Shown: positions 21,063 through 63,492 of the stretch, one piece after another
Position numbering within the stretch: position 1 is the first letter of the stretch
Layout: each line of letters begins with the position of its first letter
Assembly (NCBI GenBank): GCA_005779395.1
Contig: SXJP01000040.1
Span: forward strand, 16,970-80,969
Length of the DNA stretch: 64,000 nt
Direction: 5' to 3'
DNA from: Actinomycetota bacterium
Lineage (GTDB): Bacteria > Actinomycetota > Acidimicrobiia > IMCC26256 > PALSA-610
Made by a program: the position numbers and the translations under genes
Notes under the pieces: generated by a model
What the model was told of the DNA's origin: nothing
Databases searched by the model: none
The model's input: only the letters and a program-made list of their open reading frames with translations

Positions 21063-21066
21063 AGAC

Positions 21067-22295: not shown

Positions 22296-22310
22296 GCCGA
22301 TAGGACAGGT

Positions 22311-23135: not shown

Positions 23136-23149
23136 GAGAATAAAGGGCA

Positions 23150-24004: not shown

Positions 24005-24059
24005 TGCAACTTTTCGCAACTAAAGGCCCGTCACTGAGCACCGAGAGGACAACGCAGGT

Positions 24060-25484
24060 ATGAGGCTCCTCGCTGCCTGGGATTGGCACAGATTCACGAA
24101 GTTCGACGTCTGGGGCGTCCTGTTCTGGGTCAATGCGATCGCACTATTAGCACTACTCATCGTTGCTGTCGTCTCAATCTCGCGTGACAAGCAAGACAAG
24201 CCAGCAGCGAACACGGTCGCGTTCTTGGCCGACGACGAACTCGAAACTTTCCGGCTAGAGCGAGTGCTCGGCTGGGCGCTCGTATTCTCGGCAATTCTCG
24301 CAGTTAGCTACGGCGTCTACTGGCTGCGCGAGCCTTCTCGTCAGCACGACTCCGACATCTACTTCGCAGAAGGAGCGATCGAGCGCGGCGAAGAACTGTT
24401 CGCCAACGAATCGTTCGAGGTCTACAACTCTGCGAAGTCTCTCAAGTGCGCAGACTGCCACGGCGGACCTGGCATCGATGCCGACCTCGGCCGCGAAGTA
24501 GTTGGTGGCGGTGGGTCCGCGCCATACACGCACATCATCGACCCAGACAATGCGTTCTCCGTTTCGTGGAGCGCGCCTGCTCTCAACACCGTGATGTATC
24601 GCTTCTCGCCTGAGGAAGTCCGTGAGATCATCACCTACGGGCGGCCAGGAACGCCGATGCAGGCATGGGGTACAGACGGCGACGGTCCGAAGAATGCTCA
24701 GAGCGTCACCGACCTTGTCGCATATATCGCTTCAATACAAATCTCGCCAGATGAAGCCCAAGGAAAAATCGCAGCCAACCTCAAAGCGGCCCAAGAACAG
24801 TCCGCCTCGCAGGTAAAGAGCGCAGAAGAAGCAGTAGCCGCTGCGACCGAAGCCCTCGACGAAGCGCAAACAGCTAGCGACGAGATTAAGGACCAAGAGT
24901 CGAACGAGGGACAACTTGCCATCCGCAAGGTTGAAGCTGCCGCGAAGAAACTCGAAGTTGCACAAGCGAAGCTAGATTGGGCCAAGGAGTGGGCAGACAA
25001 GCGTTCCGGAATCAGTGACGGCCAGTTGCTGTTCGAAATGAACTGTGCTCGTTGCCACACCAAGAACTGGAGTTTGTTCAACCCGAGCAACCCATACCTA
25101 CGCCCAGAGACATTGCTCGGTCCGGCTGGTGGGGGCGGCAACACAGGCTTCAGTCTCGTGAACGTAGAGAAACTTCGGTTCAACAACGGACTAGACGCAG
25201 AAGGCAAGCCAGACCCGACGTCGGGCTGGACTAGCCACAACCTGTTCGTGACAAACGGTTCTAACAAGCAGAAGCCATACGGCAACGGCGGCAGCGGAAG
25301 CGGTCGCATGCCAGGCCAATGCAACACCGACTTCTTCGCTTCCTTCGACATCCTCGAGCACAGCGGGTGCATGCTCACCACAGTGCAGATCGAAGCGATC
25401 GTTGCGTACGAACGCTGTGGACTCCTAGCAACATTGCCAGACCACAGTGCAGCCAAATATGACACAGACTGCGATAAGCCGTAG
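24060..25484 (+). CDS. Membrane-anchored diheme cytochrome c subunit
   Basis: CADCH and CARCH; candidate Met ligands in TPMQAW and GRMPG; two N-terminal TM helices. Confidence 0.85.
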   Translation: MRLLAAWDWHRFTKFDVWGVLFWVNAIALLALLIVAVVSISRDKQDKPAANTVAFLADDELETFRLERVLGWALVFSAILAVSYGVYWLREPSRQHDSDIYFAEGAIERGEELFANESFEVYNSAKSLKCADCHGGPGIDADLGREVVGGGGSAPYTHIIDPDNAFSVSWSAPALNTVMYRFSPEEVREIITYGRPGTPMQAWGTDGDGPKNAQSVTDLVAYIASIQISPDEAQGKIAANLKAAQEQSASQVKSAEEAVAAATEALDEAQTASDEIKDQESNEGQLAIRKVEAAAKKLEVAQAKLDWAKEWADKRSGISDGQLLFEMNCARCHTKNWSLFNPSNPYLRPETLLGPAGGGGNTGFSLVNVEKLRFNNGLDAEGKPDPTSGWTSHNLFVTNGSNKQKPYGNGGSGSGRMPGQCNTDFFASFDILEHSGCMLTTVQIEAIVAYERCGLLATLPDHSAAKYDTDCDKP

Positions 25485-25515
25485 TCCTAAAAGATTTCAG
25501 AGAAGAGGAGACCCC

Positions 25516-26373
25516 GTGCAGGTACTGCACATTCTCGCTAGCGAAGGCGGCGGCGCCAAGAACCTTTGGGATCCCACGATCCTTGGTGTTCTCACGGTGC
25601 TGTCTGGCGTCGTGCTGTTCTGTGGTTCGACATACATGTTGCTCACAACGAACATCGGAGCCCGCCAGGGTTTCCTAGTTGCATTCTGCAGCCTCACCGG
25701 AATAACGATGTTGCTCGGCGCTCTGTGGCTAACGACCAACACGCCACTCAACGTTCCGAAGGGACGCGTGGCCCAGTGGATCCCCGTTTCCGAAGAGCCG
25801 ACTGATGCCATCGTTGCCAATCTGAGTGACTCAGCGATTCAAGCACTCAGGTCAATCGATTCAGAAGGCACGCCCGTACCCGAGAAGGGTCCGGCCGACT
25901 CGGACGTCCTTGAGCGCGGCGAGCTTCGCCCTGCAGTCGAAGCGGCGCTAGTAAAAGAAAAGACTGAAGGCCCCCACGAAGTCGAAGCCGGACCGCTAGT
26001 GCTCGTGTGCGATACATGTGCAGGCGATGTCATCACCAACCTCGATGAACTCAACTCGTACACGATTGGTGGCGGCACCAAGAACCTCTTCTGGCACAAC
26101 ACTCAATACGCAGCCGTTGAGTTCTGCACTCGCTTTGCTCTAGACCCGGTTTTTGCTGACCCAAGTGCCGAAATCAAAGACGCCGAGTGCGACCCAGCCA
26201 TCGCCCACAAATTCCTTCTCCTAAAGCGCGACTTCGGATCACTTCGGTTACCTGCACTGTTCTACACACTCGTTTCCGGGTTGCTGCTCGGACTTGGCCT
26301 GTACGCAATGCACATCAAGGAACGGTCCGAACAACGGACCTCGGCAGGCGCACTCACGCCGACCAACGCCTAG
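25516..26373 (+). CDS. Hypothetical membrane protein (2 N-terminal TM, soluble Cys-containing domain, 1 C-terminal TM)
   Basis: GAGGAG RBS before GTG 25516; hydrophobicity pattern. Confidence 0.75.
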   Translation: MQVLHILASEGGGAKNLWDPTILGVLTVLSGVVLFCGSTYMLLTTNIGARQGFLVAFCSLTGITMLLGALWLTTNTPLNVPKGRVAQWIPVSEEPTDAIVANLSDSAIQALRSIDSEGTPVPEKGPADSDVLERGELRPAVEAALVKEKTEGPHEVEAGPLVLVCDTCAGDVITNLDELNSYTIGGGTKNLFWHNTQYAAVEFCTRFALDPVFADPSAEIKDAECDPAIAHKFLLLKRDFGSLRLPALFYTLVSGLLLGLGLYAMHIKERSEQRTSAGALTPTNA

Positions 26374-26550: not shown

Positions 26551-27810
26551 TCAGAGGTTCGCTGCAGTAGCCGCGGCTGCTGCGATGGTCTCCTCGATCA
26601 CCTCATGGGTGTGAGCGAGACCGCAAAAGAGAGTTTCGTAGCCACTAGGAGCAAAGAAGACTCCCCGCTCGAGTAGCCCATGGAAGAATTTCGCGTAACG
26701 CGCATGGTCGGCTTGCTTGGCTGACTCATAGTCACTTACCGCTCCGCCAAAGAACACCCCAACAAGGGTCGCCGACCTGGTTACGTTCGCTTGTACCCCA
26801 GCGTTCACAAAAACATCTGACAGTCCCTCAGCGAGATGGGTTGCGAGATCGACGAGACGTTCGTAAGCAGAGTCGTCTAACAACTTGAGTGTCGCAATTC
26901 CTGCCGCGGTTGCTAGCGGGTTTCCGCTCAGTGTCCCGGCCTGATAGACGGAACCGAGCGGCGCTAAGTGGTCCATGATGTCCGCTCTGCCGCCGAGACC
27001 AGCGAGTGGCAACCCACCGCCGACCACCTTGCCGAAAATTGTGAGGTCGGGAACAATTCCGAACAGGCCTTGTGCGCCTGCTCGCGCGACGCGAAATCCT
27101 GTGATCACTTCATCGAAGATGAGCAACGCTCCGTGCCTGCTGCAAATGGCTCGTAGCGCTTCGAGGTAGCCATCTTGCGGCGGGACTAACCCCATGTTCG
27201 CAGCGATCGGCTCGACAAGCAGCGCAGCGATGTCAGAGCCATGTAGCGCAAAGGCCTCTTCGATAGCAAGTACGTCGTTGTAAGGACACGCGATCGTGTC
27301 TGCGACTGTTCCTTCGGTGATTCCAGCAGAACCAGGTAGCCCGAGCGTTGCGAGACCAGAGCCCGCTGCAACCAGCAGCGAATCCAGGTGCCCGTGATAA
27401 CAGCCTGCCAGCTTGATGACCTTTGAACGGCCCGTCGCACCGCGGGCGAGTCGCACGGCCGTCATCGCAGCTTCGGTGCCGGATGACACGAGACGGACTT
27501 TCTCGATGGATCGAACACGCCCGCAGATCAGTTCCGCTAGTTCCACTTCGCCTTCTGTTGGAGTGCCGTAACTAGTGCCAAGAGATGCCGCTTGCTGAAT
27601 CGCATCTACGGCTGCCGGATGAGCGTGACCGAGAATGACAGCACCCCATGACTGCACATAGTCGGTGTAACGCTTGTTGTCGGTGTCGTACAAATACGCG
27701 CCACGAGCGCGAGCCGTGAAGAATGGCTGCCCACCGACACTGCCAAAGGCGCGCACCGGCGAGTTGACACCACCAGGAATGCGCGCCTCTGCGCGCTCGA
27801 ACAAACTCAA
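26551..27810 (-). CDS. hemL: Glutamate-1-semialdehyde 2,1-aminomutase
   Basis: IPGGVNSPVRAF, SSGTEA, FDEVITGFR, GKVVGGGLP, YQAGTLSGNP. Confidence 0.96.
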   Translation of the reverse strand: MSLFERAEARIPGGVNSPVRAFGSVGGQPFFTARARGAYLYDTDNKRYTDYVQSWGAVILGHAHPAAVDAIQQAASLGTSYGTPTEGEVELAELICGRVRSIEKVRLVSSGTEAAMTAVRLARGATGRSKVIKLAGCYHGHLDSLLVAAGSGLATLGLPGSAGITEGTVADTIACPYNDVLAIEEAFALHGSDIAALLVEPIAANMGLVPPQDGYLEALRAICSRHGALLIFDEVITGFRVARAGAQGLFGIVPDLTIFGKVVGGGLPLAGLGGRADIMDHLAPLGSVYQAGTLSGNPLATAAGIATLKLLDDSAYERLVDLATHLAEGLSDVFVNAGVQANVTRSATLVGVFFGGAVSDYESAKQADHARYAKFFHGLLERGVFFAPSGYETLFCGLAHTHEVIEETIAAAAATAANL

Positions 27811-50505: not shown

Positions 50506-51444
50506 CTGTCACCTAGACCGACCCCGACAAATCAGAGCAGGTGGAGGCGAAAACTCGCTCTCTTCGTTGCTGTCGGCTCAATCATCGGCATTTGGCTTTG
50601 TCCCGTCACTGCTAGCGCGAACCCGAGCGATGACATCAGTACAGCGATGGCCGAAGCCGATCGCCTCGCCGAGAGATGGTTCGCCGCGCAAGAAGAAGCC
50701 GCAACGCTCGATGCGCGGATCGAAGAACTCGAAGTCGATCTAGAAAATCTACAAACAACAACTGTGGCTTCGCGAGACACGGCTCATCGCCTAGCTGTGA
50801 GTCTCTATCAGCGCGATATTCCGGTCCCAGTGGGGGAATTATTCGGCGGCACAGACGCCATGGATACTGCGCGACGGGCCGTAATCCTTGGACAAGTCAA
50901 CGAAAGCGCAAGAGATGAGTTACAGATCTACACGATTTCTGTTCGTGATGCTCGCGCTCGCCTCAAAGAAATCGAGCGGCAACGCGTAGAGCATGCGGCG
51001 GTTCTCGCACAATTGGACCGCGACCAAGTCGCAATGAAAAAGCAGTTGGCGGCGGCGCAACGCGCATATCGGGCTGAGCTCGCAGCACTAGCGGACGCGA
51101 CCACGACTACCGCGGCGCCTAGCGAATCATCTGACGACGCCCCAGCGACCGTTGATCCGCCACCCCCACCGCAACCGGGTGAATACGAGCATCGCAACGA
51201 TCCGTTCTTGTCGTGCGTCCGGCAAAGAGAAAGCCACGGGATATACACCGCAGTGAATCCTGCTGGTTACTACGGCGCATATCAGTTCGGGTCAAGTACA
51301 TGGGACGTCACCGCATCGCACGCAGGCAGACCGGAACTCATCGGAGTTCGGCCAGATACCGCATCTGTTTGGGACCAAGACGAACTCGCGTGGGTCTTGT
51401 ACCAATGGCAGGGAATGGGTCCGTGGGGCGGTGGCTGCGGCTAA
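50506..51444 (+). CDS. Secreted coiled-coil protein with C-terminal Rpf-like lytic transglycosylase domain
   Basis: CVRQRESHG..YGAYQF..TW..DQD..LY..QG..PW; an in-frame signal peptide lies upstream of ATG 50647; CTG 50506 start is inferred. Confidence 0.8.
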   Translation: MSPRPTPTNQSRWRRKLALFVAVGSIIGIWLCPVTASANPSDDISTAMAEADRLAERWFAAQEEAATLDARIEELEVDLENLQTTTVASRDTAHRLAVSLYQRDIPVPVGELFGGTDAMDTARRAVILGQVNESARDELQIYTISVRDARARLKEIERQRVEHAAVLAQLDRDQVAMKKQLAAAQRAYRAELAALADATTTTAAPSESSDDAPATVDPPPPPQPGEYEHRNDPFLSCVRQRESHGIYTAVNPAGYYGAYQFGSSTWDVTASHAGRPELIGVRPDTASVWDQDELAWVLYQWQGMGPWGGGCG

Positions 51445-51800
51445 CGAATCATGTAAGCCTTGCGCACGGTTGTGTGCACAACGCAAGTGCCTCGCCAGCC
51501 TTCCGCGAAAAACGCGACTACGTCTGGGCCAACCTCGATTACTTCACCGGACTCGTGGGTATAGGTAGCTGTGCCCGAAATGAAGTAACAAAACTCGTCG
51601 CTCGTTACATGGCAATCCCACGACCCTGGCGTGCAGGTCCAGATACCGCACTCGGATTCGTTGTGGGATCCACGATGAATCATTCGCCCGGCGGTCTTAG
51701 ACAGCCCCTCGATAGGCGCTGCGACCGGACCCCAATCAACTAGTTCCGTAACCGTTGAAGCGTCTTCTAGACGCGGCACACTCGAACTTGTTGCGGTCAT
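51441..51800 (-). CDS. Cupin (DUF861/EutQ-like)
   Basis: GIWTCTPG, DEFCYFISG, GD-like turn, F..GWRG, VRKAY. Confidence 0.85.
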   Translation of the reverse strand: MTATSSSVPRLEDASTVTELVDWGPVAAPIEGLSKTAGRMIHRGSHNESECGIWTCTPGSWDCHVTSDEFCYFISGTATYTHESGEVIEVGPDVVAFFAEGWRGTCVVHTTVRKAYMIR

Positions 51801-53089
51801 GGCCGCGAACTTTGCACAAGTGCGTCGAGAATCCTCGCGGCCTTCTTAGCGCCATTGTCCGACTGCATGTTCGCGCTCGTTGTTGCTAGGCGTTGATGCA
51901 TCGCCTTGTCTGTTAACAATGTGTTGATCGCCGCGGCAAACTCATCGTCGGACCAGTTTGAACGATGCATCGTGAGACCATGCCCGGTCTCGGCGACCCG
52001 CGTGGCGTTGTCGTGACCATCCCACACGTATGGCAACACAAGAGCAGGCTTGCCGAAATAGAGGCACTCAGTGAAGGAGTTGTTACCTCCATGGTGAATC
52101 ACCGCGTCTACCTGTGGGATCACAGACGGTTGCGGGTACCACGCGGCCAAGTGAACATTTGCTGGTGGTGTCGAATACCGATCCAGATATTCACCAACAT
52201 TTATCAAACACCGGTATGGCAGGCGCCCTAGCAACTCGATGATCCGGTCGAACAAGGCTGTGTCACCAGCGCCAAGACTTCCGAAAGATAGATACAAAAG
52301 CGGCGCATCGTTGTGCAACGCGAACACAGGGACTTCATACGGTTCGTCGTCGCGCACGCAACCCTGTAGGTACTCGAACTGCGGCGAGGCAAGTGGGATG
52401 CGACGATCAAATGCAACTGCTTCTGGATAAAGCAAGAAATTACACCATGGGGATGCCTCGAAGAACTGTCCCAACGGATACGGAGCTTCGCCACACTCAG
52501 CCAAAAAGCTATTGAAATCAGCATGTATCGGCGCGATGACCTCATTGAAATGTGTCTCGAATGCGACATGACCTTCGTGGTCATTCGATTTGCAGCCAGA
52601 TAGGTGTGGCGGAATACTCGCATCGGGGATCTCATTCTCACTACACGAGATAATCCGAACCCATGGTTTGCCGTACCGCTTGATCGCAGGAAACAAGATG
52701 ACGTTGTCTACACACACGACGTCGGCACCGATTTGGGCCAACGCTGCAGGCAGACTTTTCTCCGCCCACTTAGCTGTGTCGACTACCGCCTCCCAGCACT
52801 CCTTCACATAGTTGTCGATTTGCTCATAGGGCGACAACGCGAAGTTCGGGATGTGAGAGTTAATGAAGTCCGTCCAGTAACGCGCCATTTCCTCTGCCGG
52901 CATCGGTTCAGAGAGGCCGACCTCAACTTCTTCGAAACCGTACGCAGAAAAAACGCCAGTGAAGCCAGGGTCTCGAATGAAGACGCAACGGTGGCCGAGG
53001 TCGCGGCATGCCTGCGCGATGCCAACCGAGTTGAGCGCAGGGCCGTAAGCGCCCTCGGGAAAGAGAGCGATCGTCCCCGGCGTGCTCAT
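51797..53089 (-). CDS. GT1/UGT-family glycosyltransferase (GT-B fold)
   Basis: YLSFGSLG; PSPG-like box WYPQPSVIPQVDAVIHHGGNNSFTECLYFGKPALVLPYVWDG. Confidence 0.85.
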   Translation of the reverse strand: MSTPGTIALFPEGAYGPALNSVGIAQACRDLGHRCVFIRDPGFTGVFSAYGFEEVEVGLSEPMPAEEMARYWTDFINSHIPNFALSPYEQIDNYVKECWEAVVDTAKWAEKSLPAALAQIGADVVCVDNVILFPAIKRYGKPWVRIISCSENEIPDASIPPHLSGCKSNDHEGHVAFETHFNEVIAPIHADFNSFLAECGEAPYPLGQFFEASPWCNFLLYPEAVAFDRRIPLASPQFEYLQGCVRDDEPYEVPVFALHNDAPLLYLSFGSLGAGDTALFDRIIELLGRLPYRCLINVGEYLDRYSTPPANVHLAAWYPQPSVIPQVDAVIHHGGNNSFTECLYFGKPALVLPYVWDGHDNATRVAETGHGLTMHRSNWSDDEFAAAINTLLTDKAMHQRLATTSANMQSDNGAKKAARILDALVQSSRP

Positions 53090-53946
53090 CCACCACCTGT
53101 CAAGGTCGCTGCTATCTCACTACTCGAGTCCCCGGAGCGTCGCAAGACGAACACGACCGACCCAAGTGCAACGAGTGTCGCAAGCAAGATCAAGGTCGAT
53201 GCTGCTGCTAAGTCCGGCCGCAACACTGAGCGAACCTTGCCAAATACATACAGCGGGAACGTCGACGAACCGGGCCGACCCGTGAACTGGCTTATGACAA
53301 CGTTGTCGAGGCTGAACGTGAACGCCAAGAGCCCACCAGCGAGCAATGCAGGAAAAATGAGCGGCAGCGTTATCTGGAAAAATGCCCTTCGTGGCGTGGC
53401 ATACAGATCTGCTGCTGCTTCTTCGAGAGCATCGTCGAGTCCGGCCATGCGAGCACGCACGATGAGCGTCACGACCGCTGAACTAAAAATCGCATGCCCG
53501 ACGACTATTGGGAAAAGGCTACGCATGAACGGGACCGACGGCTGAACAAATGGCCCACCCACCTCGACAAACCAGACCTGTAGCCCGATGGCGTCGACAA
53601 TTTCGGGAGTTACCAAAATCAAGAATATGACTGCGAGAAAACCCTTGGTCCATGACCCTGGACGACGTGCCAACGCAACCCCAGCAAGACCACCGAAAAC
53701 GACGGAAATCGGCGATGAGTACAGGGCGACTTTGAATGAATTAGTGATCGTGTCTTTGAGTTGCTGATTCTCAAATAGTTTTCCGTACCAGTCGGTAGTG
53801 AATCCGCCCCAGCGCGTAAGAGCATTTGAGTCCGAAAAACTGTGGACCACGATAAAAAGAATCGGCAAGTACAAGAAGACAAGCACGATCGCAGCCCACG
53901 CGCCAAGCGAAAGACTGATGGTGTCGATGCGACGTCGCCTAACCAT
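53086..53946 (-). CDS. potC: Polyamine ABC transporter permease (PotC-like)
   Basis: FLYLPI, TTDWY, LEEAAADLYA, FTFSLD. Confidence 0.85.
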   Translation of the reverse strand: MVRRRRIDTISLSLGAWAAIVLVFLYLPILFIVVHSFSDSNALTRWGGFTTDWYGKLFENQQLKDTITNSFKVALYSSPISVVFGGLAGVALARRPGSWTKGFLAVIFLILVTPEIVDAIGLQVWFVEVGGPFVQPSVPFMRSLFPIVVGHAIFSSAVVTLIVRARMAGLDDALEEAAADLYATPRRAFFQITLPLIFPALLAGGLLAFTFSLDNVVISQFTGRPGSSTFPLYVFGKVRSVLRPDLAAASTLILLATLVALGSVVFVLRRSGDSSSEIAATLTGGG

Positions 53947-54910
53947 TTGTCGCCACCGCAAGGTCATCTCCGCGTGTGCCTGGAATGTCGACTTTCCGCA
54001 TCCGGTGTAGCACTGCCTTGAAAGCGAACGAGATAATCGCAACGATCGCAATCACGAGGAGGATGCTGCCCATAAGCATGACAGCGATCGCGGACCCGAG
54101 CGCCTGGTTTTGAGCCTGCAAGAACTGTGAAGCAACAAGCGCGCCAGACATGTTGCCGTCAGCTCCACCTAGCACTGCCGCGGTGATGTAGTCGCCAGAC
54201 AACGGAATAAAGACAAGCAACAGTCCCGCGATCACTCCGGGTGCACATAGAGGCAATGTGACTTGTAAGAACGTCTTGAGGCGAGAAGCACCGAGGTCCT
54301 TGCTCGCTTCGCGCAATGCTGGCTCGAGTCGATCGAGTGTGACGAACAGCGGGAAAATCATGAGTGGCAAGTAGTTGTACACAACTCCAAGCTGAACCGC
54401 GGCCTTAGTGTTTAGGACCTGAATGTTTGAGTCGCGCATGCCGATGTCTTGTAGCCAGTTCGACAAGAACCCAACCGGCGACAAAACGATCCGCCATGCG
54501 ATCGTCCGAATCAAGAAGTTCGTCCAGAACGGAATTATCAAGACACCTAAGAAAATGCCGCGCCAGCGCGCTGGAATCCGAATCGCCATGAAGTACGCGA
54601 CTGGAAATCCAATAATGAGGCAAAGCAAAGTCCCAGTTATCGAGATGCGCATCGTCTGCTGCAATACAACAAAGAACGTCGGCTTGATTGCATCGCGATA
54701 ACGGTCGAGTGTCAGTGGGCTGAATTCAGTCCGACCAGCCGAGCCTGGAATCTTCGTCCCGAAGCTATAAAAAATAATTAGTACGACAGGGACCAAGAAG
54801 AAGGCCACGTAGTAGCCCCACGACGGCAGGGCCAACGCAAACTTCGGCAGCCTCAGCGAGCGCCTCGGCGCGCGATGCACCGAGGCTCCGAAGTCCGACG
54901 TAGTTGTCAT
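53939..54910 (-). CDS. potB: Polyamine ABC transporter permease (PotB-like)
   Basis: IGFPVAY, PFWTNFLIRTIAW, YNYLPLMIFP, EASKDLGA. Confidence 0.85.
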   Translation of the reverse strand: MTTTSDFGASVHRAPRRSLRLPKFALALPSWGYYVAFFLVPVVLIIFYSFGTKIPGSAGRTEFSPLTLDRYRDAIKPTFFVVLQQTMRISITGTLLCLIIGFPVAYFMAIRIPARWRGIFLGVLIIPFWTNFLIRTIAWRIVLSPVGFLSNWLQDIGMRDSNIQVLNTKAAVQLGVVYNYLPLMIFPLFVTLDRLEPALREASKDLGASRLKTFLQVTLPLCAPGVIAGLLLVFIPLSGDYITAAVLGGADGNMSGALVASQFLQAQNQALGSAIAVMLMGSILLVIAIVAIISFAFKAVLHRMRKVDIPGTRGDDLAVATNG

Positions 54911-54928
54911 TGACGAATGCTTGGCGTA

Positions 54929-56089
54929 TTACGCGCCAGCAGCTGCCTTCGTGTTGTTGTAAATCTCGACGAGGCGGTCTTGTGCGCTGTTCACTGCCCC
55001 TGCGTGCATCGTCGCGACCTGAGCGTCTTCGAAGAAGATCATGTCGGCATATGGGAGGTCGTCAGGCAACAGGCTCGCAATGTCTGCCATGCCTGTGTTG
55101 TAACCGTGGAACTCAAGGTCCTTGACGGAGTTGTCCTGGTCAAGGATGAAGTTGATGAAGTCGTGTGCACCGTCTGGGTTTGGTGCGCCCTTCACGATTG
55201 CCCAGTTGTCCATCCAGAGTTCGGTGACAGGTCCGCCCAACGCCCACGAGTAATCAGCGGGGTCGCCTCCGGCACCTTCGTGGGCGATATATCCCATCCT
55301 GGCGTCACCGTTCCATGCCTGTGAAAGCACGTAGTTGCCTTCAACGAGTGTGACACCAGGGTATGAATCGAATGCCTTGATGTGTTTGGCGAGGGTGTTG
55401 ACCAGGTAATCCTCAGCAGCATCTAGATGAGCCGGGTCTTCTGTTGTCCAGTCGATTCCGTTAGCCCAGAAGTAGAGACCGCAGAGGTTTCCTGGCGTGT
55501 CGAGCACAGAGACTTGGCCGCTTGCCGGGCCTTCGCATGCGGCGAGGAAGTCGGCCCAGGTGACGATCGGGGTCGTAATGACTCGATTGTCGTACATGAA
55601 CCCGGTAGAACCCCAGTCCTTGCAGACCGAGTACTGGTTGCCCTGATCCCAAGCCTGGTTCGTGTAGGCAACGTCGAGGTTCTTGAAGTTTGGAATCTTT
55701 GATAGGTCGAGTTTCTGGAGAAGGTCCTCTGACACCATCTGCGGGATGAACACACCGGTAGGCACAACGACGTCGTAACCAGATGAGCCCTTTGCTGCTG
55801 CAAGCTTTTGGATGGCTTCCTCGTTTGAACCATAGATGTCGATCGTTAGACCACCCCATGAGTTGAGTAGTTCTTCGTCGTCGTAGTCGGCCCACGTGAA
55901 CAGGTTGATGTTCTTGTCGACCTTGCCGCCCATCGTGCTGCCTGTTGTCCCCGGCTTCTTCTCGTCGTCGCCACACGCAGCAAGGAATGCAGCTGCTGCA
56001 GTAGCACCAGAGAGCGCCAGGAAGTGCCTGCGGTTGAGTTGAGCTTTGAGGCGTTCTGCTGTCACCTGCGGAATAAGGATCTTGGTCAT
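54929..56089 (-). CDS. potD: Polyamine ABC transporter substrate-binding Tat lipoprotein (PotD/PotF-like)
   Basis: NRRHFL...LAAC; TWADY, SNEE, GYDVVVP, WNGD, WMDN. Confidence 0.87.
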   Translation of the reverse strand: MTKILIPQVTAERLKAQLNRRHFLALSGATAAAAFLAACGDDEKKPGTTGSTMGGKVDKNINLFTWADYDDEELLNSWGGLTIDIYGSNEEAIQKLAAAKGSSGYDVVVPTGVFIPQMVSEDLLQKLDLSKIPNFKNLDVAYTNQAWDQGNQYSVCKDWGSTGFMYDNRVITTPIVTWADFLAACEGPASGQVSVLDTPGNLCGLYFWANGIDWTTEDPAHLDAAEDYLVNTLAKHIKAFDSYPGVTLVEGNYVLSQAWNGDARMGYIAHEGAGGDPADYSWALGGPVTELWMDNWAIVKGAPNPDGAHDFINFILDQDNSVKDLEFHGYNTGMADIASLLPDDLPYADMIFFEDAQVATMHAGAVNSAQDRLVEIYNNTKAAAGA

Positions 56090-56107
56090 TGTCGCTCCCT
56101 AGTTCAG

Positions 56108-57271
56108 TCAGTCCCCAGATGGGGCGTTCTCGGTTGTCGGATCAACTAGCACCAGATCGCTCTGGCTTGAATCAAAAACATACGCGTCGGAAGCTGCCCA
56201 TGTGCACCAAACCGGGTCCCCTGGCAATACTCGCGCAGCTTCGCGCCTTGGTGCGCGAATCAGCAACTCTCTTGAGTCTGTGCGGACCACAAACTGCACG
56301 ATGTCCCCGAGCGGTGAAACGCCCGCAAGTACGCCAGCAACGCGGTTTGCGCCAGAGCCGGGGTCGGTGCTGGTGACTTCGATGGCTTCTGGTCTCACGC
56401 AAGCCAACACCGCGCTGCCAGCACCAATGCCCGACTGCATTTTTGCGCTTTCGATCTCGGTGCCGTCATAGGCTTTCAGGCCTCGGGTCGTAGCCGTGCC
56501 CTGCCAGAAGTTGTTCTGACCGATGAAGCCAGCGACGAAGGCCGACTTTGGGTCTTCATAGATCGTGTCTGGGTCTGCGAGTTGTTCGATATGACCTTCG
56601 AGCATCACGGCAATTCGGTCAGACATCGACAGGGCTTCTTCTTGGTCGTGAGTCACGAATATAAATGTGATTCCAAGATCACGCTGCAACATCTTGAGTT
56701 CGATCTGCATCTCTTGGCGAAGCTTCCGGTCGAGTGCACCAAGCGGTTCATCGAGTAGCAGAACGCTCGGGTTGTTTACGAGAGCACGCGCGAGAGCAAC
56801 ACGCTGTTGCTGTCCACCCGACATCTGACGAGGCTTGCGTTTCGCGAGTTTGGTCATCTTGACCATTTCGAGGGCTTCGCCGACACGGCGCGCAATCTCT
56901 TTCTTGTCGACGCGCTTTTGGCGAAGTCCGTACGCGACATTCTCGGCGACAGTCATGTGCGGAAAAAGTGAGTAGTTCTGGAACACGGTATTGACGTCGC
57001 GTTTGTAAGGAGGAAGCGCAGACACTTCTCGGCCGGAGATGTACATAGACCCGCCGTCAGGATTTTCGAAGCCCGCGAGCATTCGCAGAGTTGTTGTCTT
57101 GCCGCAACCGCTTGGACCTAAGAGCGACAAGAACTCACCTGGCGCTACACGAAGGTCGATCGAATCGACAGCGACTACGTCGCCAAAAAACTTGCTCACG
57201 CCGACGATGTCAACTGAACCATTCGCTGTCTGCAATCCAAACTCGTTTGTCTCGATTGAAGCCATAGTCAT
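56108..57271 (-). CDS. potA: Polyamine ABC transporter ATP-binding protein (PotA-like)
   Basis: GPSGCGKTT, PPYKRDVNTVFQNY, MSGGQQQRVALARAL, THDQEEAL; ATGA overlap. Confidence 0.9.
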   Translation of the reverse strand: MTMASIETNEFGLQTANGSVDIVGVSKFFGDVVAVDSIDLRVAPGEFLSLLGPSGCGKTTTLRMLAGFENPDGGSMYISGREVSALPPYKRDVNTVFQNYSLFPHMTVAENVAYGLRQKRVDKKEIARRVGEALEMVKMTKLAKRKPRQMSGGQQQRVALARALVNNPSVLLLDEPLGALDRKLRQEMQIELKMLQRDLGITFIFVTHDQEEALSMSDRIAVMLEGHIEQLADPDTIYEDPKSAFVAGFIGQNNFWQGTATTRGLKAYDGTEIESAKMQSGIGAGSAVLACVRPEAIEVTSTDPGSGANRVAGVLAGVSPLGDIVQFVVRTDSRELLIRAPRREAARVLPGDPVWCTWAASDAYVFDSSQSDLVLVDPTTENAPSGD

Positions 57272-58860
57272 ACTCGCCACACCTGCGCACCTTTTACCCA
57301 TGTGCCCTTCACCGGCACGTCGGCAATCTCGAGGCCACCGATCGAAGTGATGTCTGCCCCAAGTAGGCAGAAGTCAGCCCGCTGTCCCACGCTTATTGAC
57401 CCCCGTTTATCGTCGAACGCTTGAAACGCAACGTCCGAAGTGTACGCACGAATCGCTTCAACAATTTTTATTCGTTCCTCTGGCATCCATCCATCACGTG
57501 GCGTGCCGTCTGGCATCTGGCGAGTGACCGCAACCGACAGGCCGCGGAGTGGCGATAACGACGACACCGGCCAGTCGCTACCAAAAGAGATGCGGCTACC
57601 GAGACGAGCGAGGCTCGCTATCGGGTATTGCATCTCCGAGCGCAATGGTCCAAGTTTCTTTGAGACGATCTCAGAAATCGGTTCGAGTCGCGCCCAGAGT
57701 GGCTCAAAGTTCGCTATCACTCCCAGGGAAGCGAAGCGACCACGATCTGCAATGTCCACTAATTGGGTGTGCGCAATTACAGAACGCTGCGGCGCGGTCG
57801 TGTTGACGCGACCGGCGTGCTCAATCGCGTCTAACGCCATCCGGACTCCCCCATCACCGATGGCATGGATATGTATCTGGAATCCTGCCGCAGCAAACGT
57901 TGCGACCGCCTCAGCGAGCTCCGCTGGCACCCAGTTCGGCAAGCCACAGTCGTGTGGCTCTACCTCGTATGGCTCGAGCACGAAACCCGTGCCCTGTTCA
58001 ATGACACCGTCGGCGAAGAACTTGACAGTGAACGCAGTCAGTCGACCTGCGGCAGCTGGGTCAGCATCGACTTCGGCGCGCCAGTTGCAAAAATCGGCGA
58101 CTTGATCGCGCCATTTTTTTGGATCTGCTCGCCACGCCATGTTGATGTCCAGCTTTAGGCGGTCCTGCCGAGCTGCCTCTAGGTAGATCGCAGCATCAGC
58201 CGCCGTGACCATCGCGTCTTGAGACCACACAATGCCATTGCTCAAGAAGTGCTCGACGGCGACATCTAGGCCCGCACGGCGTTGGTCGTCTGTCGTTTCG
58301 GGCACATGCCTGTCGATCAGGTCAATAGCCCCCCATTCCACGAGCATCCCCGATGGCGAGTTGTCCGACCGACGCAGAATCTGTCCAAGTTGCGGCTCGC
58401 TAGTAAGCGCATCTATCCCGGCGATTTCGAGCGCCCGACTATTTACCCAAACGGTGTGATAGTCGGCAGCGCTCAGCTTGACCGGACGGTCGCTGACTAC
58501 GGCGTCGAGCCATGCGGCATCGCCCCGCCCGTCAGGCAACAATGACGGGTCATAAGGGCCAGCAACTATCCATGGCAGATCAGGATTCGTTGCGGCGTAG
58601 CGCCCGATCGTCGCAACGATCTCTTCGGTGCTGCTGCAATGCTCCAAGGGACAGCGATTGAGGTCTATCCCGCCCTCGAGCGGATGCGCATGGCCATCCC
58701 TGAAGCCACTAATAAGCAGGCCGCCTTCGAGGTCGACCTCTTTGCCACCTAGTTCTTTGGCGTCATCTCCAAGCCCGATGATGACACCATCGTGCACTGC
58801 TACGGCATCCGCTCGCGACCCGTCAGCACCCAGCACCAAGCCATTGACAAAACACTCCAC
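57268..58860 (-). CDS. Amidohydrolase 3 family (YtcJ/NfdA-like)
   Basis: GFRDGHAH, KFFADG, HAIGD, IAH, GSDWPV; GGGGGG RBS before GTG 58860. Confidence 0.87.
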   Translation of the reverse strand: MECFVNGLVLGADGSRADAVAVHDGVIIGLGDDAKELGGKEVDLEGGLLISGFRDGHAHPLEGGIDLNRCPLEHCSSTEEIVATIGRYAATNPDLPWIVAGPYDPSLLPDGRGDAAWLDAVVSDRPVKLSAADYHTVWVNSRALEIAGIDALTSEPQLGQILRRSDNSPSGMLVEWGAIDLIDRHVPETTDDQRRAGLDVAVEHFLSNGIVWSQDAMVTAADAAIYLEAARQDRLKLDINMAWRADPKKWRDQVADFCNWRAEVDADPAAAGRLTAFTVKFFADGVIEQGTGFVLEPYEVEPHDCGLPNWVPAELAEAVATFAAAGFQIHIHAIGDGGVRMALDAIEHAGRVNTTAPQRSVIAHTQLVDIADRGRFASLGVIANFEPLWARLEPISEIVSKKLGPLRSEMQYPIASLARLGSRISFGSDWPVSSLSPLRGLSVAVTRQMPDGTPRDGWMPEERIKIVEAIRAYTSDVAFQAFDDKRGSISVGQRADFCLLGADITSIGGLEIADVPVKGTWVKGAQVWRV

Positions 58861-59039
58861 AGATCCCCCCCTTTGTTCCAGCCCAAGATCTGAAGGATCG
58901 AGATTCGCAGAAATTTGTGCCAAATGCAACTGATTCCTCCGCAAGAGCCCAATATTTTCGTGGAAAACTTGGCGTCCGCGCTTCATCTCAGGCATTATGG
59001 AGCCACAACGACATCATTCGAACGAGGGAGATCACACAG

Positions 59040-60461
59040 ATGGGCACAGACAACTTCATCGGCGGCAAGTTTTCTCCGGCTGGTTCGGGCAAGACCGACG
59101 AGGTCATCAACCCAGCCACAGGCGAGGTCATTGCCAAGGTAGCTAGCTCTGACTCGATCGACGTCGACGCAGCAGTAGCCGCCGCGAGCGATGCCTTCGG
59201 TGAATGGTCGGCAAAGACTCCTCGTGAGCGATCCGAGGCCATGTTCGCTTTAGCAAAGATCATCGAAGACAACGTCGATGAACTATCCGAAATCGAGATG
59301 CGCAACGTCGGCAAACCAAAACAGATCATCGGCATCGAGATGGACCTTTCTGCAGACAACCTGCGCTTTTTCGGTGGCGCCGCCCGCAACATGGAGGGCA
59401 AAGCAGCGGGCGAATACCTCGCTGACCACACCAGCTACATCCGGCGCGACCCGCTCGGCGTAGTCGCAGGTATTGCACCATGGAACTATCCCCTCAACAT
59501 GGCCGTCTGGAAGTTCGGTCCCGCTCTCGCTACTGGCAACACGATCGTCCTGAAACCATCAGAGTTAACGCCACTGTCGCTGTTGCGTTTCGCTGAGCTC
59601 GCATCAGAGGTTCTTCCGCCAGGAGTTCTCAACGTGGTCTGCGGACAGGGCGAGACTGCCGGCGACGCAATCGTCCGCCACAAAGACATTCGTCTTGTGT
59701 CGCTCACCGGCGACGTCAACACCGGCAAGCTGATCGCCCGCAACGCCGCCGACACCCTGAAGCGCGTTCACCTAGAACTCGGCGGCAAAGCACCGGTGAT
59801 TGTCTTCGATGATGCCGATATCGAAACGCTCGTGACAGCTCTCGCCGAAGGTGCCTACTACAACTCTGGTCAGGACTGCACGGCGCCGTGTCGGGTGATC
59901 GCAGGCGCCAAAGCATTCGAGAAACTCGTGCCAGCGCTCACAGACGCCGTTGGCGCAATCGCAATGGGCGACCCGTTCGACGAGAACACAGCAATGGGAC
60001 CAGTCATCTCGAAGGACCAACAAGATCGTGTAGCAGGAATGGTTTCACGCGCTGCCGAAAGCGGTGCCGAAGTCACGGTCGGCGGAAACACCGGTGCTGG
60101 CGCTGGGTTCTTCTATCAGCCAACCGTTGTCGTGAACCCTGCGCAGAACTCAGAGATCGTGCAACGCGAAGTCTTTGGTCCGGTCGTGTCTGTCCAACGC
60201 TTCAACGACGAAGCCCAGGCGCTGCAGTGGGCCAACGGCGTTGACTACGGCCTGTCCGCGTCGGTATGGACGAGCGACGTCGGGCGTGCGATGCGCATGA
60301 GCAAGGCACTCGAATTCGGGTGTGTGTGGGTCAACCAGCACATCATGATCACTAGCGAAATGCCGCACGGCGGGTTCAAGCAGAGCGGCTACGGCAAGGA
60401 CATGTCCTCGTACGCGCTCGAGCACTACACCGAAGCCAAGCACGTAATGATCAAGCACTGA
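59040..60461 (+). CDS. Gamma-aminobutyraldehyde dehydrogenase
   Basis: PWNYPL, KPSELTP, LELGGKAP, NSGQDCTA, EMPHGGFKQSGYGKDMS. Confidence 0.88.
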   Translation: MGTDNFIGGKFSPAGSGKTDEVINPATGEVIAKVASSDSIDVDAAVAAASDAFGEWSAKTPRERSEAMFALAKIIEDNVDELSEIEMRNVGKPKQIIGIEMDLSADNLRFFGGAARNMEGKAAGEYLADHTSYIRRDPLGVVAGIAPWNYPLNMAVWKFGPALATGNTIVLKPSELTPLSLLRFAELASEVLPPGVLNVVCGQGETAGDAIVRHKDIRLVSLTGDVNTGKLIARNAADTLKRVHLELGGKAPVIVFDDADIETLVTALAEGAYYNSGQDCTAPCRVIAGAKAFEKLVPALTDAVGAIAMGDPFDENTAMGPVISKDQQDRVAGMVSRAAESGAEVTVGGNTGAGAGFFYQPTVVVNPAQNSEIVQREVFGPVVSVQRFNDEAQALQWANGVDYGLSASVWTSDVGRAMRMSKALEFGCVWVNQHIMITSEMPHGGFKQSGYGKDMSSYALEHYTEAKHVMIKH

Positions 60462-60511
60462 ATCAACACCAGTATCACCCTCTGTAACACAACTACAAAC
60501 AGGAACTAGTC

Positions 60512-61873
60512 ATGACAGACATACAACGCATCAACGCTCGCGCAGCCGAGATCGCAACGACCGAAACCGCTCGTCTCATCGAGCGCACCCCGCAGTCCAA
60601 GGTTTGGTATGAGCGCGCGCTCAAGTCCATGCCGATGGGCGTTGGCTCATCCTTCCAAGAGGGTGACCCTTACCCGATCTACTTGAGTCACGGTAAGGGC
60701 TCGCGCGTGTTCGATGTCGATGGCTCCGAATACATCGATACGCACGGCGGTTTCGGTTGCATGGTTTACGGACATGCCCACCCGAAGATTGCAGAAGCAA
60801 TCGCTCGCGCAGCGTCACGCGGCACGCACTTTGCTGCTCCGACTCCCGACGCTGTCTTGTTGGCCGAAGAAATCTGTTCGCGATACGACATGGACCAAGT
60901 GCGGTTCTGTAACTCTGGGACCGAAGCAACGATGAACGCGATTCGTATCGCACGCGCCCACACTGGCCGCGACCACATCATCAAAGCCGAGGGCTCCTAC
61001 CACGGTCACCACGACCCGGTGATGTTCTCGGTCGTCCCGAATGCCGACGTCATGGGTGGCCGCGAAATGCCAGCAAGCACCCCGATGTCGCTCGGTACTC
61101 CAAAATGGCTTGCGGATTACACCCACGTTGTGCCCTTCAACGATCTCGTAGTTCTCGATGCATTGCTCGAAGAACGTGGTGGCGAGATCGCCTGCATGAT
61201 CCTCGAACCCGTGATGATGAACATCGGGATCGCGCAACCACAGCCGGGCTACTTGCAGGGTCTCAAGGATCTGCTGCATAAGCACGGCGTTGTACTCATC
61301 TTCGACGAAGTCAAGACCGGTACAGCTATCGCGCGCGGTGGCGCAGGGGACCTGTATGGAGTTCGTCCCGACCTCACTTGTGTCGCGAAAGCGACGTTCG
61401 GTGGTACTCCTGGCGCTGCGTTCGGCGGTACCGCAGAGATCATGAGCGCAATCGGACGTGGCGCGGCGCAACAAGGAACGTTCAACGGTAACCCGCTAGT
61501 TGCTGCTGCAGGCCTCGCGGCACTGACGGAGGTCCTCACTGCCGATGCCTACGAGTATCTCGCAACGCTCGGTACGCGCCTTGCTTCTGGCTGCCAAACG
61601 GCTATCGATTCGAACGGGATTCCTGCGCACACAGTCGACCTTGGCGCTAAAGGCTGCGTGTCGTATCGGCCGACTCCTCTCACCAACTACCGCGATTTCC
61701 TCGACACGAACCTTGACTTGTATGCGGCTTCATACCCATGGATGGTGAATCGCGGGATCTTTATGACCCCAGGCGATGAAGAGCAGTGGACAATTTCGGT
61801 GCAGCACACAGATACCGACATCGACAACTACATCGCGGCTTTCAGCGAACTCTGCGCAGCGTTGGCTAGCTAA
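60512..61873 (+). CDS. Class III PLP aminotransferase, HemL/GSA-like paralog
   Basis: NSGTEA, EGSYHGH, EPVMMN, FDEVKTG, AK, GTFNGNP. Confidence 0.88.
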   Translation: MTDIQRINARAAEIATTETARLIERTPQSKVWYERALKSMPMGVGSSFQEGDPYPIYLSHGKGSRVFDVDGSEYIDTHGGFGCMVYGHAHPKIAEAIARAASRGTHFAAPTPDAVLLAEEICSRYDMDQVRFCNSGTEATMNAIRIARAHTGRDHIIKAEGSYHGHHDPVMFSVVPNADVMGGREMPASTPMSLGTPKWLADYTHVVPFNDLVVLDALLEERGGEIACMILEPVMMNIGIAQPQPGYLQGLKDLLHKHGVVLIFDEVKTGTAIARGGAGDLYGVRPDLTCVAKATFGGTPGAAFGGTAEIMSAIGRGAAQQGTFNGNPLVAAAGLAALTEVLTADAYEYLATLGTRLASGCQTAIDSNGIPAHTVDLGAKGCVSYRPTPLTNYRDFLDTNLDLYAASYPWMVNRGIFMTPGDEEQWTISVQHTDTDIDNYIAAFSELCAALAS

Positions 61874-61883
61874 GGACCTGTAA

Positions 61884-62372
61884 TTGTCTATTCGCACCGG
61901 TGGTACAAGACGTAGCGAACCACCGGTACAGCTAGATGACGCCGACAAGAAGATCGTTGAACTTCTGCAGCGCGATGGTCGACTGCCGTACACGCGGCTA
62001 GCGCAAGATGTTGGGCTATCCGAGGCGGCAATTCGCCAACGCGTTCAACGCTTGATCGATAGCAACGTGATGCAGATCGTCGCTGTGACCGATCCGCTAC
62101 GACTCGGCTTTCGCCGCCAAGCAATGGTCGGCGTGAAAACAGAAGGTGACATCACGGTCGTCGCAGACGCCCTCGCAGCAATACCTGAGGTCGACTACGT
62201 CGTATTCACCTCCGGCAGCTTCGACCTCTTGTTCGAAATCGTGTGCGAAGACGATGAACACCTGCTCGAACTGCTGAACGACAAAGTCAGAACAATTGGC
62301 GGGGTAAGGGGTGCAGAAACCTTCGTTTACCTCCGACTTCACAAACAGACCTATACGTGGGGCGCTAGATGA
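61884..62372 (+). CDS. Lrp/AsnC family regulator
   Basis: LQRDGRLPY..VGLSEAAIRQRVQRL, VAVTDP, GSFDL. Confidence 0.92.
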   Translation: MSIRTGGTRRSEPPVQLDDADKKIVELLQRDGRLPYTRLAQDVGLSEAAIRQRVQRLIDSNVMQIVAVTDPLRLGFRRQAMVGVKTEGDITVVADALAAIPEVDYVVFTSGSFDLLFEIVCEDDEHLLELLNDKVRTIGGVRGAETFVYLRLHKQTYTWGAR

Positions 62373-62382
62373 GGAGAACTCA

Positions 62383-63492
62383 ATGAGAGTCGGTATCCCT
62401 AAGGAGACCAAGCTTGATGAATACCGGGTAGCGATAACACCCGACGGTGTCCATGAACTCGTCAAGCACGGAGTCACGGTGAACGTCGAGGTCGGTGCAG
62501 GAGTCGGAAGCTCCATTTCTAATACCGACTACATGGCTGCTGGGGCCGAGATGGTGGAATCTGCGGCAGAAGCATGGGCTGCTGATCTCGTCTTGAAGGT
62601 CAAGGAGCCTCAGGAATCTGAGTTCAAGTACCTGCGCGCTGATCAAACTCTGTTCACCTATCTGCACTTGGCTGCATATCCGAAGGTCGCTAATGCGCTC
62701 CTAGCGGCTGGCACAACTTCGATCGCGTATGAGACGGTGCAACTGCCCGATGGCTCTCTTCCGTTGCTCGCTCCGATGAGTGAAGTTGCTGGACGCATGG
62801 CAACGCAAGTCGGCGCTCACTTCTTAGAACGCCGACACGGCGGACGCGGCATTCTGTTAGGTGGCGCGCCAGGAGTTCGGCCAGCGCGTGTCGTGGTCAT
62901 TGGCGCTGGAAATGTCGGTTGGAACTCTGCTTGGATTGCAGCTGGCATGCAAGCCGAGGTAGTACTCATCGACAAGAGCCTCGACCGACTTCGGTGGGTC
63001 GACCAGATTCATCAAGGTCGCATCGTCACGCTCGCGTCTAATTCTGCTTCGGTTGCGCGCGCCGTAGCTGACGCTGATCTCGTTGTTGGCGCGGTCCTAG
63101 TTGCTGGCGATCGCGCTCCGAAGGTCGTAACAGACGAGATGATCCGGGCGATGAAACCGCGCGCTGTGATCGTTGACGTAGCCATCGACCAAGGTGGTTG
63201 TGTAGAGGGAATTCGCGAGACAACGCATCGCGAACCAACATTTGAAAAACACAATGTCCTGCACTACGCGGTCGGCAACATGCCAGGTGCCGTTCCTCAT
63301 ACATCTACCTACGCGCTCACGAACGTGACCTTGCCTTATGTAGTCGATCTCGCTACAGAAGAAATCGGTGCGGTCCTACGTAGGCATCCGGAACTCGTCC
63401 ACGGCATCAACACAAGTCGCGGGCATATGACAAACAAAGTCGTCGCCGACGCGATTGGAATGCCATCAATACATTTCTCAGACTCTGTTTGA
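62383..63492 (+). CDS. ald: Alanine dehydrogenase
   Basis: GIPKETK..EYRVA, KVKEP, FTYLHLAA, PMSEVAGR, DVAIDQGGC, NMPGAVP. Confidence 0.95.
   Translation: MRVGIPKETKLDEYRVAITPDGVHELVKHGVTVNVEVGAGVGSSISNTDYMAAGAEMVESAAEAWAADLVLKVKEPQESEFKYLRADQTLFTYLHLAAYPKVANALLAAGTTSIAYETVQLPDGSLPLLAPMSEVAGRMATQVGAHFLERRHGGRGILLGGAPGVRPARVVVIGAGNVGWNSAWIAAGMQAEVVLIDKSLDRLRWVDQIHQGRIVTLASNSASVARAVADADLVVGAVLVAGDRAPKVVTDEMIRAMKPRAVIVDVAIDQGGCVEGIRETTHREPTFEKHNVLHYAVGNMPGAVPHTSTYALTNVTLPYVVDLATEEIGAVLRRHPELVHGINTSRGHMTNKVVADAIGMPSIHFSDSV

Follow-up and report, generated by a model that had tools for sequence, protein, structure and literature searches.

A PotABCD-type importer operon carrying a histidine-less GT1-type glycosyltransferase and a cupin, with a candidate role in amine catabolism

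The operon and its importer

We analysed a 64,000-nucleotide stretch of DNA from an Actinomycetota bacterium (contig SXJP01000040.1, positions 16,970 to 80,969; called the window here), concentrating on seven genes that lie head to tail on its minus strand from 58860 to 51441. In order, these encode an amidohydrolase, the PotA-, PotD-, PotB- and PotC-type components of an ABC importer, a glycosyltransferase (GT) and a Cupin_3 protein (Table 1), and they form one operon, which in our reading serves the uptake and processing of an amine-type compound. An earlier reading of the DNA, made without database searches (the sequence-only reading), had described the genes as probably a single unit, and their tight packing bears this out. 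The ATGA overlaps that it reported at the amidohydrolase/potA, potC/GT and GT/cupin junctions were all found in the sequence; in addition, potB and potC overlap by 8 nt, and gaps of 18 nt separate potA from potD and potD from potB. Since 18 NTGA overlaps are listed on the minus strand of the window, including the nuo and hem operons, these junctions represent the ordinary operon style of the genome, and support co-translation without being special. The amidohydrolase gene begins with a GTG start codon preceded by a G-rich ribosome-binding site. At the other end of the operon, the cupin gene and a convergent Rpf-like transglycosylase gene (50647-51444) share the stop-codon bases 51441-51444 (CTAA on both strands), so that no terminator would fit between the two genes. 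With a GC content of 0.545-0.566, which falls within the range of the window (0.545-0.589), the operon shows no compositional sign of recent transfer.

Table 1. Genes of the operon and of the divergent cluster, with the intervening region. Scores are given with model cut-offs where available.
Feature	Position	Strand	Evidence
YtcJ-like metal amidohydrolase (Amidohydro_3), 530 aa, first operon gene	57268..58860	-	PF07969, E 1e-83
potA-type ABC ATPase with TOBE domain	56108..57271	-	TIGR01187, 381.3 bits (cut-off 355.6)
PotD-family substrate-binding lipoprotein	54929..56089	-	SBP_bac_8, E 5e-22; twin-arginine signal and LAAC lipobox
potB-type permease	53939..54910	-	best match NF007044 PotB, 212 bits (below cut-off 348)
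potC-type permease	53086..53946	-	best match NF007047 PotC, 175 bits (below cut-off 326)
Histidine-less GT1-type (GT-B) glycosyltransferase, 430 aa	51797..53089	-	PF06722, PF00201, PF04101 (all above cut-off)
Cupin_3 (DUF861) protein, 119 aa	51441..51800	-	PF05899, 54.5 bits (cut-off 23.5)
Divergent intergenic region between operon and dehydrogenase, 179 nt	58861..59039
Aminobutyraldehyde dehydrogenase	59040..60461	+	NF010000, 705.3 bits (cut-off 615)
HemL-like class-III aminotransferase	60512..61873	+	NF000818, 384 bits (just under cut-off 398)
Lrp/AsnC regulator	61884..62372	+	AsnC-type helix-turn-helix and ligand-binding domains
Alanine dehydrogenase	62311..63492 (open reading frame as listed)	+	TIGR00518, 500 bits (cut-off 392)

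The importer appears to comprise the same four components as Escherichia coli PotABCD, and differs from it in the gene order A-D-B-C. Pot models were the best matches for PotB, PotC and PotD, yet all three proteins scored below the equivalog cut-offs; PotA passed its subfamily model and remained under the cut-off of the equivalog NF006987 (396.7 against 482 bits). The best matches of the binding protein in the PDB were polyamine-binding proteins (PotD, E 1e-31). In E. coli PotD, the three nitrogens of spermidine are held by Glu36, Glu171 and Asp257, as described in the available text of PMC4096761. Pairwise alignment showed that the window protein keeps W34, Y37, W229, W255, D257 and Y293 of E. 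coli PotD. The equivalents of the three amine contacts are Asp68 (Glu36), Asn201 (Glu171) and Asp294 (Asp257), so that two of the three carboxylates are retained and the Glu171 contact is gone; Thr and Val further replace Asp168 and Tyr85, respectively.

We then aligned 41 binding proteins linked to GTs of this family, in columns of moderate reliability. The aromatic box and Asp257 were present in all of them and Tyr293 in 39, while the Glu171 position was occupied by Glu in 4 proteins, Trp in 34, Ala in 2 and Asn in the window; for a Rhizobiaceae binding protein, Trp at this position was confirmed by pairwise alignment. With the Glu171 contact lost, a classical polyamine ligand, as supposed in the sequence-only reading, is not assured. 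Judging from these residues, we expect an amine-like ligand that is probably no classical diamine or triamine with both ends free; the site would suit a monoamine, or a diamine whose one end is capped.

The glycosyltransferase and the cupin

A search of the PDB with the window GT gave a full-length alignment to the spider-mite UDP-glycosyltransferase (UGT) TuUGT203A2 (7lvy; E 2e-52), which suggests a GT-B fold of two Rossmann domains. TuUGT202A2 (6pnt) also aligned (E 2e-22), and a profile of the GT family matched the two mite enzymes with E values of 4e-67 and 9e-36, respectively. The macrolide-type glycosyltransferases (MGT: OleD/OleI, CalG and YjiC) resemble the window GT in the C-terminal nucleotide-sugar domain (E 1e-13 to 1e-24; TIGR01426 E 2e-24), but they use a GH motif and their N-terminal halves barely align with it. 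The score against TIGR01426 was 86.7 bits for a cut-off of 260, so the GT is not an MGT member.

The loop FPEGAYGPALN (FPEGAYGPALNSVG) of the GT, where the GH motif would be expected, contains no His at all. Pro17 aligns with the GH-motif His of UGT203A2, and the catalytic His25 of UGT202A2 aligns to a gap. According to the available text of PMC10731231, His25 and Asp140 of TuUGT202A2 form the conserved catalytic dyad of GT-B enzymes. Asp128 of the window GT aligns with Asp140, and among 15 aligned relatives, spanning the tight group to distant relatives, this position was Asp in 14 and Glu in one. A residue-by-residue alignment to UGT203A2 showed an intact nucleotide-sugar box (WxPQ...HHGGNNSFTE...D, with WYPQ and D357 in the window GT), which ends in WDGHDN where UGT203A2 has GDQHDN, the final Gln being replaced by Gly; presumably, the Gln of the DQ motif contacts sugar hydroxyls. 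The HHGGNN(S/T)F.E box and the dyad Asp are therefore common to the window GT and the mite enzymes, whereas the catalytic His25, the DQ motif and the use of hydrophobic plant compounds as substrates set the mite enzymes apart. In addition, UGT203A2 has Met, Pro, Leu and Gly where the window GT has Glu12, Glu151, Glu153 and Asp156. The mite UGT genes were acquired from bacteria, as stated in the part of PMC10731231 that is available.

The unusual traits that the sequence-only reading had pointed out in the GT (no N-terminal His, Pro in its place, and DG for DQ) proved to be real and family-wide. In an alignment of 24 members, none had a His between F10 and G23 and all had DG instead of DQ, and W317, P319, Q320, H333, G334, G335, N336, N337, E341 and D357 were invariant. 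Mean column identity was 78%, with invariant stretches at FPE-A-GPALNSVG, SCSENE, IPPHLSGC, the UDP box and WDGHDNATR. The other 119 relatives among the matches listed were 66-80% identical to the window GT, the two closest at 80% and 73%. A total of 2,710 relatives scored at E values up to 1e-10, and representatives at 50% identity showed a sharp fall from the tight group to relatives of at most 43%.

The wider alignment of 15 sequences allowed a comparison of relatives with and without the loop His. Twelve lacked it and three had it; position 12 was Glu or Asp in 11 of the 12 His-less sequences and Leu or Ile in all three His-bearing ones, and the pair Glu151-x-Glu153 occurred in nine His-less relatives and in none of the three others. 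An acidic position 12 where the His is absent, together with the retained Asp128, points to a relocated base or a new cation-binding site in the GT rather than a loss of catalysis. The suggestion in the sequence-only reading that no general base would be needed is for the same reason not required.

Among distant GT relatives, one protein (P0211, 887 aa, 30% identical) is fused to GNAT acetyltransferase domains; domains of this kind commonly act on amines. No fusion of a GT with a cupin was seen among the long GT relatives scanned (all five above 750 aa, with P0122 and P0260) or among 17 long cupin relatives, and the neighbours of distant GT relatives on Streptomyces and Pseudomonas plasmids were unrelated.

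The GT-associated cupin matched only uncharacterised DUF861 structures in the PDB, the family profile giving E 2e-12 for 3bcw and E 6e-5 for TM1112; matches of the profile to sugar-phosphate isomerases were non-significant (E 0.06-0.9). The cupin shares PF05899 with 3bcw, TM1112 and 3es4, in all of which the activity is unassigned, but the window-type subfamily differs from them in a conserved set of Cys residues and in its constant pairing with a GT. Cys56 and Cys71 are invariant in the subfamily, Cys106 is found in at least 90% of members and Cys51 and Cys63 in most; His72 is also present, as is His64 in window-type cupins, and together with conserved acidic residues these Cys and His could form a metal site. 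Downstream of the GT lie between one and three paralogous cupin genes. The 17 long cupin relatives (P0271-P0287) are fused bicupins, all of about 240 aa, and in those aligned (P0273, P0277 and P0281) a B-type half precedes an A-type half, which is the order of the tandem cupin genes. Because of the tandem genes and the fused bicupins, the working unit of the cupin is probably a dimer. BauB of the Pseudomonas beta-alanine operon is also a small cupin, as described in the available text of PMC12431658.

We found no characterised member of the GT family in the PDB or NCBIfam, and the protein atlas held generic glycosyltransferase names only. The open full-text literature, which leaves subscription journals outside, yielded nothing on the GT family, on bacterial glycosylated polyamines or on a function of DUF861. 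Thus an already characterised, unrelated function of the family, which the sequence-only reading had allowed for, was not encountered in these sources.

Gene neighbourhoods in other genomes and in the window

We scanned GT loci in one genome per species, obtaining at least 581 relatives, and analysed the best 80 loci using gene calls that were the union of two gene-calling heuristics, with clustering. These loci are mostly alphaproteobacterial and, as the tree shows, phylogenetically non-independent. Searches of the 80 loci with the window proteins (tblastn) detected the cupin in 61, potA-like genes in 51, potB-like genes in 44, potC-like and potD-like genes in 38 each and an aldehyde dehydrogenase in 39. 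Of 72 testable loci, 58 had a same-strand cupin gene no more than 1.5 kb downstream of the GT, and at least three of the four pot-like genes lay within 6 kb of the GT in 35 of the 54 loci that extend 6 kb or more to either side. In 31 of 68 bacterial loci, GT-cupin was followed, within 3 kb and on the same strand, by a specific aldehyde dehydrogenase (module ALDH), each copy being 52-62% identical to the ALDH of the Natrialba module.

Rhizobiales, Rhodobacterales and Rhodospirillales share the layout potD-B-C-A-GT-cupin(s)-ALDH, with a divergent GntR/FCD regulator and a paralogous second GT (GT2); annotated plasmids of Ruegeria conchae and Shinella have the same arrangement. The order is GT-cupin-cupin-potA-D-B-C in an Acidocella group and potA-D-B-C-GT-cupin in the window, and a further layout occurs in the group of loci L054 and L067. 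The window importer is 25-53% identical to those of the loci (PotD alone 25-33% for alphaproteobacterial loci), and the GT 64-70%. Linkage of the GT to pot genes, which the sequence-only reading had made a test of its proposal, is therefore conserved in at least four gene orders and two domains of life. The conserved core is the GT with one to three cupins, often accompanied by the module ALDH that the window lacks. GT-cupin(-ALDH) is a tightly conserved module; in many bacteria and in haloarchaea its neighbours include PotD-type importers and genes of amine catabolism.

In Mesorhizobium, a glutamine synthetase-like (GS-like) gene and a FAD oxidase adjoin the GT module. Hyphomicrobium carries GT-cupin without an importer, and a single locus combines the module with a creatinase-like peptidase. 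The paralogous GT2 was found at 3586-5803 of the alphaproteobacterial locus L062 and in 24 other alphaproteobacterial loci; it is about 48% identical, has GA and not GP in the loop, and lies downstream of the GntR/FCD regulator, often followed by a second ALDH resembling betaine aldehyde dehydrogenase. Its branches in the tree are far longer than those of the first GT (GT1). Locus L054 is labelled Flavobacteriales, and its GT and neighbours are near-identical to those of the alphaproteobacterial L067 (tree distance about 0.14, with the genes in the same order), which may reflect either a mistaken taxonomic label or a transfer of the region.

Plasmids of Natrialba and Natronorubrum encode GTs that are 57-59% identical to the window GT. 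Both plasmids carry an IclR regulator, GT, cupin, ALDH, a ROK glucokinase-like gene, a GlmM/PGM-like mutase and a HemL-like aminotransferase, as well as a PotD-type ABC system and FAD oxidoreductases, and the Natrialba plasmid alone adds a GS-like gene and a glutamine amidotransferase, which are Puu-like. The kinase and mutase genes follow the GT-cupin-ALDH trio (13343-15915 in L082 and 15296-17827 in L083), and they were present in none of the bacterial GT loci examined. The best model for the mutase was archaeal phosphoglucosamine mutase, at 288 bits below the cut-off of 439.

The amidohydrolase behaved differently from the rest of the operon. The protein matches positions 1-471 of the 472 of PF07969 and its translation contains the HxH metal motif DGHAHP, and the closest solved structures are the uncharacterised hydrolases 3icj and 3igh. 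tblastn detected it in none of the 80 GT loci; it is specific to the operon version of the window and lies outside the conserved GT module. Of the set that had been described as hard-wired, the linkage of GT, cupin and pot genes is thus conserved, and the amidohydrolase is not part of it. Relatives of the amidohydrolase that are about 39% identical lead Opp/Dpp-type ABC operons on two Streptomyces plasmids (L088 and L089), with a divergent TetR gene, which suits an enzyme that unmasks an imported amide.

The genes reported as divergent from the operon, for aminobutyraldehyde dehydrogenase, transaminase, Lrp and alanine dehydrogenase, are all present. A consensus promoter and terminator scan of 51000-59300 placed no promoter in the intervening region and gave nothing above shuffled sequences, and no Rfam family was matched in a scan of the whole window. 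The aminobutyraldehyde dehydrogenase shares only 33% identity with the module ALDH found behind GT-cupin in other genomes. The HemL-like aminotransferase is a paralogue of the true HemL, encoded in the haem cluster at 26554-27810 (610 bits), and has 36% identity to its counterpart in the haloarchaeal GT cluster; it also resembles the model of the guanitoxin transaminase GntE. The TIGR00518 match of the alanine dehydrogenase begins at residue 25, and the true start is probably a later ATG.

The remainder of the window is housekeeping in nature, with genes for haem synthesis and Rex, MshA-like and MenJ-like genes and two nuo clusters; together with the Rpf-like transglycosylase domain, this suggests an actinobacterial chromosome. 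The genes for complex I form two sets in tandem: minus-strand genes at 3621-18995 and 4-2557 comprise a complete nuoA-N followed by a second nuoA and nuoB, an unassigned open reading frame of 261 aa (889-1671) in the place expected for nuoC, and a second nuoD that runs past the window edge. On the plus strand at 20469-26370, a b-type cytochrome exceeds the cut-off of the ExtP model from selenite/tellurite-reduction operons (306 against 290 bits), and its neighbours include six open reading frames without an NCBIfam match at E 1e-30.

A candidate role in amine catabolism and its alternatives

Our preferred reading, which we hold tentatively and at somewhat less than even confidence, is that the GT performs a UDP-sugar tagging step in amine catabolism and that the cupin acts on the resulting conjugate. 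In the window, the amidohydrolase would free an amine from an imported N-acyl or amide form, and the GT would then use a UDP-sugar to glycosylate the amine-bearing substrate or an intermediate, the sugar serving as a temporary tag much as the gamma-glutamyl group does in the Puu pathway. The role of the His-Asp dyad may fall to Glu12 and/or Asp128. The chain could be oxidised by the divergent transaminase and aminobutyraldehyde dehydrogenase in the window, and by the module ALDH elsewhere, with alanine dehydrogenase regenerating pyruvate. A cupin dimer would process the conjugate, either by isomerisation or by removal of the sugar, and the kinase and mutase of haloarchaea may recycle the sugar. 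If the sugar part is constant, this would account for the identity of about 58-70% that GT, cupin and ALDH retain across domains of life while the importers differ. In its strongest form, this proposal makes the GT, the cupin dimer and the module ALDH the core of a third, sugar-based tagging route next to gamma-glutamylation and acetylation, with N-glycosylation of the amine, as put forward in the sequence-only reading, by a GT1 enzyme whose base has moved from His to Glu12, oxidation of the chain while tagged, release or rearrangement of the sugar by the cupin and recycling by kinase and mutase, shared by Alpha- and Gammaproteobacteria, Actinomycetota and haloarchaea; we regard the route in this full form as doubtful.

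The Puu and Pau pathways tag the amine, oxidise the chain, dehydrogenate the aldehyde and remove the tag. The logic proposed here is similar, and Puu-like genes lie near the module in Natrialba and Mesorhizobium, but the tag would be a sugar from a UDP-sugar instead of glutamate. No genes resembling PuuA, PuuB or PuuD were found among those at 50647-63492, and the GS-like protein of Natrialba had no match anywhere in the window. An Amadori-type, sugar-mediated transamination, involving the HemL-like enzyme, FAD oxidases or a saccharopine dehydrogenase-like gene, was considered and set aside, as it needed too many unsupported steps.

A number of observations weigh against sugar tagging. The acceptor and donor proposed for the GT are predictions from sequence and gene context, and the N-glycosylamines formed from primary alkylamines, being chemically labile, would be unusual as intermediates of a pathway. 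No transaminase or oxidase that could make the aldehyde is encoded in the minimal alphaproteobacterial module, which consists of the importer, two GTs, two cupins, ALDH and GntR, and some loci have no amine gene at all. The types of regulator adjacent to the module, GntR/FCD and IclR, usually sense organic acids. Of the 54 loci that extend 6 kb or more to either side, eleven have no cupin; eight of these are from Arenicellales, whose GT has efflux and housekeeping genes as neighbours and where a cupin gene was not found. Single loci pair GT-cupin with TRAP genes, or with a LIV-type ABC system and GCV_T, and there the link to amines is indirect. Moreover, the linkage counts are not phylogenetically independent, given the preponderance of Alphaproteobacteria, and since the two haloarchaeal GTs are 89% identical, their sugar-handling genes amount to one independent observation.

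The same genes could instead degrade an imported sugar-amine conjugate, with the GT working in reverse to pass the sugar to UDP and save the bond energy, the cupin isomerising the sugar or the aglycone, and the amine going to the transaminase and dehydrogenase. GT1 reactions are reversible, the module is found in catabolic loci with importers and local repressor-type regulators, and the haloarchaeal module is adjoined by the GlmM/PGM-like mutase; the Trp that replaces Glu171 in most GT-linked binding proteins (34 of 41) could also stack its aromatic face on a sugar ring. However, we are aware of no glycosylated alkylamine that is naturally widespread in sea, soil and brine, and the literature found on such compounds dealt with chemical synthesis, or was a review on goji berries, and none of it was bacterial. 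The ROK kinase fits a free hexose and not a UDP-sugar, and the acceptor half of the GT is so extremely conserved that a single, fixed small substrate is to be expected, in spite of the variation among the importers. We consider this explanation unlikely. A sugar-containing cell product, such as a solute, a thiol or an envelope component, made by GT and cupin and merely co-regulated with nitrogen scavenging, would account for the GTs of Arenicellales and Hyphomicrobium, which have no importer beside them. It is common for RmlC-like cupins to modify the nucleotide sugar of a partner GT, and the weak, non-significant cupin matches to sugar-phosphate isomerases would be in keeping with this. The GT of the window is, however, translationally coupled to potC, GTs lie inside importer operons in most Alphaproteobacteria, a catabolic-type ALDH is conserved alongside in 31 of 68 loci, and no other conserved biosynthetic genes were seen near the GT loci, all of which make a separate product rather improbable.

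The lack of a catalytic His would also be expected if the acceptor were a carboxylate, which needs no general base. The GT would then make a 1-O-acyl sugar ester of an acid derived from the ALDH, for example an omega-amino acid, and the cupin would use or rearrange the ester. FCD and IclR regulators usually sense acids, and Rhizobiaceae pair a GT with an ALDH twice, as GT1-cupins-ALDH1 and as GntR-GT2-ALDH2. Against this, the cluster of Glu12, Glu151, Glu153 and Asp156 in the acceptor half would repel a carboxylate that is not zwitterionic, the module ALDH is missing from the window, and to our knowledge bacterial catabolism offers no precedent; we see little probability in such an ester. Lastly, the absence of the canonical His might mean that the GT-like protein is a UDP-sugar-binding regulator or a pseudoenzyme that has lost its base. 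The invariant stretches of the acceptor half and the high mean column identity (78%) indicate a strongly constrained active site, position 12 becomes acidic just where the His is lost, and the sugar-contacting Asp357 is retained, which together leave this explanation very improbable.

A GT1 enzyme and a Pot importer operon are each of a known kind, and there is a reasonable chance that an operon which combines them conceals a new pathway. Sea water and soil offer polyamines and related amines as major sources of nitrogen and carbon, and the bacterial routes known for amines are transamination, gamma-glutamylation, acetylation and direct oxidation. GT-cupin(-ALDH) is a widespread module without an assigned function that is built into amine-uptake operons, and it may mark an undescribed step of amine metabolism. 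Its GT family comprises bacterial relatives of the horizontally acquired detoxification UGTs of spider mites, and appears from its alignments to present a clean natural switch of the catalytic base. If sugar tagging is correct, it would represent a new catabolic logic, and new chemistry for GT1 enzymes, which are widely used as glycosylation tools; even if that idea is wrong, the module is a well-defined, testable orphan.

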